Shown piece after piece: positions 32,809 to 32,846 of a stretch of 64,000 bases of DNA; position 1 is the stretch's first letter, and each line of letters begins with the position of its first letter. Source of the stretch: Escherichia coli. GTDB taxonomy: Bacteria; Pseudomonadota; Gammaproteobacteria; Enterobacterales; Enterobacteriaceae. The notes beneath the pieces are model-generated. The model saw only the letters and a list, made by a program, of their open reading frames with translations. It ran no database searches and was not told the origin of the DNA. Location: NCBI RefSeq assembly GCF_003334305.1, contig NZ_QOWS01000002.1. One strand, given 5' to 3'. Made by a program: the position numbers and the translations under genes.

Positions 32809-32846
32809 TGATTCATAAATCACAACAATAACAACAGACTGAATCG
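32809..32846 (+). promoter_or_regulatory. PaaX operator-like inverted repeat TGATTC-N26-GAATCG
   Basis: Inverted hexamers at 32809-32814 and 32841-32846 immediately upstream of paaX ATG; resembles PaaX box TGATTC-N27-GAATCA recalled from literature. Confidence 0.35.

Follow-up and report, generated by a model that had tools for sequence, protein, structure and literature searches.

The inverted repeat before paaX in Escherichia coli strain A7, a probable PaaX operator of Px left after loss of the paaZ and paaA promoters

Introduction

What is the pair of inverted hexamers that ends one base short of the paaX start codon, and what is left for it to do in a strain that has lost the other promoters of the paa cluster? 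The DNA in which this question arises, a stretch of 64,000 nucleotides referred to below as the window, matches with 100% identity the E. coli strain A7 (NZ_CP028767.1; source, orangutan faeces), in which paaK, paaX, and paaY are annotated in this order. An earlier note on the same DNA had drawn attention to a PaaX-box-like repeat at this position and had suggested that it may regulate paaX itself and that it may be the only local target left to the repressor after a deletion.

Ferrandez and co-workers are said to have first defined, in 2000, a 15-bp PaaX box at Pa and Pz, the promoters of paaA and paaZ, and the strain used in the work on paa regulation, including the autoregulation of Px, was presumably E. 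coli W. The box of the E. coli repressor is given as TGATTC(N27)GAATCA in a review (PMC9493321, citing Kim et al. 2004). A second review places all three paa transcription units under PaaX control, and both reviews report the binding of PaaX and its release by phenylacetyl-CoA, the inducer of the PaaX-controlled promoters (PMC9493321), at its target promoters. According to the first review (PMC9493321, citing Fernandez et al. 2014), Px, from which paaY is co-transcribed with paaX as paaXY (PMC9493321), is repressed by PaaX through steric hindrance of RNA polymerase, while the mechanism at Pa is described as different from that at Px and Pz (PMC9493321). A crystallisation paper on PaaX, cited in the second review, names E. 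coli W. Further sources touch on the subject only in passing: a genomic-SELEX overview mentions PaaX solely as a member of the GntR family, in a paper on PdhR the paaX promoter served solely as a control probe that is not bound, and a 2026 paper on paa evolution contains nothing on promoters. Searching the full-text literature for PaaX together with TGATTC returned only the review PMC9493321.

Results and Discussion

Sequence and position of the inverted repeat

The sequence confirmed the pair of hexamers described earlier. The left arm, TGATTC, occupies 32809–32814 and is followed by an A/C-rich spacer of 26 bp (32815–32840) and by the right arm, GAATCG (32841–32846), which is separated by a single base (A, 32847) from the ATG of paaX (32848). 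The exact complement of the left arm would be GAATCA, which the right arm matches at five of six positions; thus, if a PaaX box is understood as inverted TGATTC/GAATCA hexamers at a distance of about 26–28 bp, it is represented here by TGATTC-N26-GAATCG with agreement at 11 of 12 arm positions. The arms lie 32 bp apart from centre to centre, that is, about three helical turns. The dyad is situated in the 100-bp gap between paaK and the repressor gene paaX (32848–33798, + strand, 316 aa). The product of the latter matches the NCBIfam equivalog TIGR02277 with 405 bits (cutoff 264.6) and is identical to the common E. coli PaaX at 315 of 316 residues, hence the cognate repressor is encoded in the same genome.

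The hexamer pair by itself is not significant over the whole window, since a dyad with at most one mismatch from TGATTC-N26-28-GAATCA was present in about 40% of the shuffled 64-kb sequences. The pattern TGATTC-N24-30-GAATCR occurred once against 0.13 expected, and at least one match to it was found in 10 of 100 shuffles. By direct count, the real window contains two dyads with no more than one mismatch (at 32809 and 40558) and nine with two mismatches. The expectation is far lower in the 100-bp paaK–paaX gap, where the shuffle rate of 0.5 per 64 kb, scaled to the approximately 62 possible start positions, gives about 5 × 10−4 dyads. It is this position, together with the conservation across species described below, for which the operator was taken as real. 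The second near-match, TGATTC-N27-AAATCA at 40558–40596, lies within a 585-aa ORF (39518–41275, ynbC by synteny with the relative A28), and the 15 top-ranking dyads of the matrix scan do not include it; it is probably a chance match.

The scan with a PaaX weight matrix that had been proposed in the earlier note was performed with a half-site matrix trained solely on the paaA-promoter (Pa) sites of species other than E. coli. As the training sites were chosen by an exact TGATTC...GAATC match, the cores of the matrix are invariant by construction and the scan amounts approximately to a test for the consensus plus its flanks. The dyad at 32809 was the only high-scoring one in the window, reaching 18.7 bits against 6.7 for the next, and its left and right half-sites contributed 15.1 and 3.6 bits, respectively. 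In A28, an intact relative of A7, the three top dyads were Pa (23.1), Pz (19.2), and Px (18.7), and all others scored 5 or less. The maximum score in shuffled windows (n = 200) averaged 12.0 (sd 2.7, highest 22.1), which is above the second-best real score of 6.7; near-matches appear to score low because the matrix penalises the flanking bases, and the direct count showed that the number of near-matches in the window is normal.

Conservation at the paaX loci of other species

An alignment of 16 PaaX proteins served to retrieve 80 paaX loci (a single one for each species) together with 10 kb on either side; 79 of these loci were usable. At the orthologous position of 54 of the 79 loci, TGATTC-N26/27-GAATC[A/G]-N-ATG ended exactly at the paaX start codon, with the dyad at −39/−40. 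These loci span 14 named genera (Escherichia, Klebsiella, Raoultella, Enterobacter, Lelliottia, Leclercia, Kluyvera, Citrobacter, Pluralibacter, Trabulsiella, Yokenella, Silvania, Pseudocitrobacter, and Pseudenterobacter). The consensus of the paaX upstream region was TGTGCTATGATTCAtccaggacaaaaataACAACAGAATGAATCAgATG. Information content was calculated on 49 distinct paaX upstream sequences of species other than E. coli, in which both arms proved invariant: the left as TGATTC, and the right, at −7 to −2 relative to the ATG, as GAATCA with 2.00 bits per column. The segment around the left arm, TGnTATGATTCA at −44 to −33, had a mean of 1.99 of the 2 possible bits per column. Upstream of the dyad the DNA could not be aligned between genera while the arms remained invariant, and the −110 to −51 segment retained only 0.19 bits per column compared with 2.0 in the arms. 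The conservation is not limited to the arms, as the spacer and leader are also fairly well conserved (1.2–1.6 bits per column).

The same loci carry a second dyad before paaA, about 9.7 kb upstream, with the form TGATTC-N27/28-GAATCA (48 distinct sequences). The spacers of the two sites differ in length: at Px, 26 bp was found in 41 and 27 bp in three of 44 distinct sites, while at Pa, 28 bp occurred in 29 and 27 bp in 19 of the 48. Judged from these alignments, the spacing is promoter-specific and conserved, 26 bp being native to Px and 27–28 bp to Pa. A spacer requirement incompatible with 26 bp had been named earlier as an observation that would speak against the site; given the conserved 26-bp spacing at Px, however, this length is no anomaly. 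The operators in E. coli itself follow the same rule. Pa of A28 and K-12 is TGATTC-N27-GAATCG, with a right arm ending in G as at Px, and Pz is TGTTTC-N28-GAATCA. Both share the hexamers of the Px site and its closeness to the start codon and the core promoter, whereas their spacers are 27–28 bp long instead of 26 bp, and this difference is kept across genera. The architecture TGATTC-N27-GAATCA, as given in the earlier note, is right: it is the box given by the review, and it is also that of Pa in A28 and K-12 apart from the final G.

The pattern of conservation also bears on a quite different explanation, according to which it is translation initiation of paaX that maintains the right arm and the conserved ACAACAGAATGAATCA block, the complementarity to the left arm being incidental. 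In its favour, the right arm occupies −7 to −2 relative to the ATG, the place of ribosome-binding signals, a canonical Shine–Dalgarno sequence is missing, and conservation extends over the entire 3′ part of the spacer (1.59 bits per column). We consider this explanation very improbable. The block is the exact reverse complement of the left arm and lies at a fixed distance from it in more than 50 species, and the hexamer pair recurs at the paaA promoter, where its distance from the start codon is different (14 bp). Moreover, Buttiauxella, Cedecea, and Serratia translate paaX without the right-arm block.

The exact dyad is absent from the paaX of Cedecea, Buttiauxella, Serratia, Shimwellia, and Entomohabitans. 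In spite of this, a TGnTATGTT- or TGnTAATGT-like element is kept at the corresponding place in Cedecea, Buttiauxella, and Serratia. The loci of Cedecea, Buttiauxella, and relatives that lack the −39 dyad (L054, L056–L061, L063, L064, L069, and L071) contain, at approximately −100 to −60 of paaX, GTGAATCAC or GTGAATCGC followed about 14 bp further on by TGATTT, upstream of a conserved TGTGCTATGTTTT. This arrangement may be a PaaX operator of a different layout. The Serratia loci have neither this arrangement nor the −39 dyad. In one further locus (L031, CACSKA010000006.1), whose contig bears the label "Chryseobacterium sp. 18061", the paa cluster is enterobacterial and has the typical Px and Pa dyads; the assembly is probably mislabelled or contaminated.

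The Px promoter and its proposed autorepression

Four bases of the left arm are also the last four of a predicted −10 hexamer, which is part of a putative extended −10 element of Px (TGc TATGAT, 32804–32812, + strand, 36–44 bp before the paaX ATG). The TGTGCTATGAT of this element is invariant across genera, and the left arm overlaps the conserved TGnTATGAT. No recognisable or conserved −35 box was seen at Px, and the −35/−10 consensus promoter scan and the terminator scan of 32500–33100 called no promoter and no terminator. An extended −10 without a conserved −35 would explain why the consensus scan called no promoter here. The assignment of the extended −10 remains a prediction based on the sequence and on the statement in the literature that Px exists. 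Transcription would start at about 32819–32821, that is, within the spacer, which would also contain most of the short leader.

The first half of the paaK–paaX gap, between the paaK stop (32747) and Px, is filled by a stem-loop (32748–32798, + strand) that is terminator- or REP-like and separates the paaA–K operon from paaXY. Its folding energy is −30.7 kcal/mol (z = −5.4), and none of 200 shuffled sequences folded as well. It was not called an intrinsic terminator since it has no T run. Unrelated GC-rich hairpins occur at its position after paaK in other genera.

The inverted repeat might itself act as RNA, forming a hairpin in the read-through paaK–paaX transcripts and masking the start region of paaX. 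The 6-bp arms could pair in the minimum-free-energy structure, but a loop of 26 nt on a stem of 6 bp is unstable, and the left arm would not be transcribed from Px itself. The calculation led us to reject this reading, which we find hardly credible at all: the structure had −4.5 kcal/mol (z = +0.64), 140 of 200 shuffled sequences folded as well, and the centroid was unstructured.

Very probably, TGATTC-N26-GAATCG serves PaaX as its operator at Px, from which the paaXY regulatory operon is transcribed; this operon comprises paaX and the thioesterase gene paaY (33780–34370, + strand) overlapping its end. Px would be an extended −10 promoter, the left half-site overlapping the −10 and the right one following downstream at a distance of about three helical turns, in the short leader before the ATG. 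Occupancy of the two arms by PaaX would shield the −10, the start point, and the beginning of the transcribed region, that is, the space needed by RNA polymerase, and would keep the expression of paaX and paaY down by negative autoregulation. In normal strains, the phenylacetyl-CoA made by PaaK would release PaaX from the site. Of the two components of such autoregulation, the presence of the operator in the repressor gene's own promoter is indicated by the sequence, and the effect on expression is taken from the literature, where PaaX represses Px (PMC9493321).

This site is not a new one. The window and E. coli W have the same sequence from 32779 to 32860, a segment that runs into the start of paaX, and the published Px operator can probably be equated with the dyad at 32809–32846 since the 100-bp gap offers no other candidate. 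The guess that the site looked autoregulatory was well founded, repression of Px by PaaX having been published. The feature is very probably the operator for PaaX autoregulation at Px that has been described before, and it is ordinary for E. coli. Gene, promoter, sequence (32779–32860), and the reported mechanism, autorepression by exclusion of RNA polymerase, are the same as for Px of E. coli W, and the site itself is no different; A7 differs in its background, which lacks Pz, Pa, and paaABCD and contains PaaX with an I233S substitution. Only this setting, a strain without the other two targets of the repressor, is unusual, and it makes the strain context slightly new. According to the reviews, two further systems resemble Px. 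These are the pac (penicillin G acylase) promoter of E. coli W/ATCC 11105 (Kim 2004; Galan 2004) and the sty/paa promoters of Pseudomonas sp. Y2 (del Peso-Santos 2006), which share the repressor family and the type of box; they belong to different genes, none of which is in the window.

Right-arm variation in E. coli

The right arm that is invariant elsewhere as AATGAATCA is degenerate in E. coli, which departs from it at two columns (ACTGAATCG). The arm is also polymorphic within the species. The exact 60-bp sequence with GAATCG, carried by A7, A28, and W, was found in 1480 of 3163 E. coli genomes (about 47%), and the GAAGCG allele, carried by K-12 MG1655 (L083, 11533–11538), in 1657 of 3147 (about 52%). 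The contribution of the right arm to PaaX binding in E. coli is thus uncertain, and only the left box, around CTATGATTCATAA, may be the functional PaaX site in this species. The right hexamer would then be a decaying remnant of the ancestral dyad, and the site would work as a single box over the −10, like the 15-bp box of Pa and Pz. The departure from the otherwise invariant arm at two columns, the further mismatch of GAAGCG in 1657 of approximately 3150 genomes, K-12 included, and the right half-site score of just 3.6 bits against 15.1 for the left agree with this possibility. On the other side, the operator of the E. coli paaA promoter also ends in GAATCG, so this variant is evidently tolerated; the review PMC9493321 describes the box of E. 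coli PaaX as having two arms, and strict conservation of the spacing and of both arms is seen in the 14 named genera. On balance, we regard a left-box-only site as rather unlikely and retain the two-arm operator as the preferred reading.

Beyond its correct annotation, the site matters little. The comparison of genera yields a definition of the Px operator as TGTGCTATGATTCA-N25-GAATCA-N-ATG, in which the left block includes the A that follows TGATTC, so that it denotes the same dyad as TGATTC-N26-GAATCA. The degenerate and polymorphic right arms of E. coli are of concern wherever PaaX/Px parts from K-12 or W serve as biosensors for phenylacetyl-CoA.

Loss of Pz, Pa, and paaABCD in strain A7

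The deletion of the paaA and paaZ promoters stated in the earlier note was confirmed by comparison with A28. At the junction 25858..25859, A7 has lost 3308 bp, corresponding to positions 2360–5667 of the A28 locus (L002), and no microhomology was found there. Lost with it were 401 nt from the 5′ end of paaZ, the entire divergent Pz/Pa control region including its PaaX operators, paaA, paaB, paaC, and paaD, and 120 nt from the 5′ end of paaE. Among 5426 complete E. coli genomes, the junction was present in one, that of A7 itself. The Px region is untouched and identical to that of A28. As the matrix scan found no other convincing PaaX dyad in the 64-kb window, the proposal that the site at paaX is the only local target remaining to the repressor held as well, and A7 provides, within this window, a natural example of a repressor left with its own promoter only.

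The junction fuses antisense paaZ to paaE from codon 41 on, and the 336-aa "PaaE" of RefSeq (window 25799–26809) begins inside the paaZ remnant.

With Pa lost, paaE′FGHIJK would be without a promoter in A7. PaaK would then make little or no phenylacetyl-CoA, which would render the autoregulatory loop non-inducible. The loop of A7 would thus be a vestigial, permanently repressed circuit, unless the I233S substitution has impaired PaaX.

The I233S substitution in PaaX

Besides the deletion, A7 and A28 differ at a single position across 23500–34999 (11.5 kb of the paa region), a T>G change at 33545 that converts ATC to AGC and results in PaaX I233S. All 15 other sequences in the PaaX alignment have Ile at this residue. 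The 60-bp sequence around this SNP was found exactly in one of the 3185 genomes containing that stretch of paaX, and this one was A7.

The substitution and the deletion could belong to a two-step history of an orphaned PaaX–Px circuit. In one order of events, the repressor was impaired first, constitutive paa expression became costly or toxic, and the deletion compensated for it; in the other, the deletion came first and a useless repressor then decayed. Separately, the GAATCG and GAAGCG alleles could give E. coli lineages (e.g., K-12 vs. W) different set-points of PaaX autorepression. Taken jointly, the orphaned circuit, the two-step history, and the allele-dependent set-points form a doubtful reading to which we assign a low probability.

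The substitution was also considered as a statistically remarkable event in its own right, and this was rejected. Over the 64 kb, A7 and A28 differ by 10 mismatches and two gaps, and with these 12 differences one SNP in paaX is not improbable; given this background, the probability of one hit in the gene is about 0.18.
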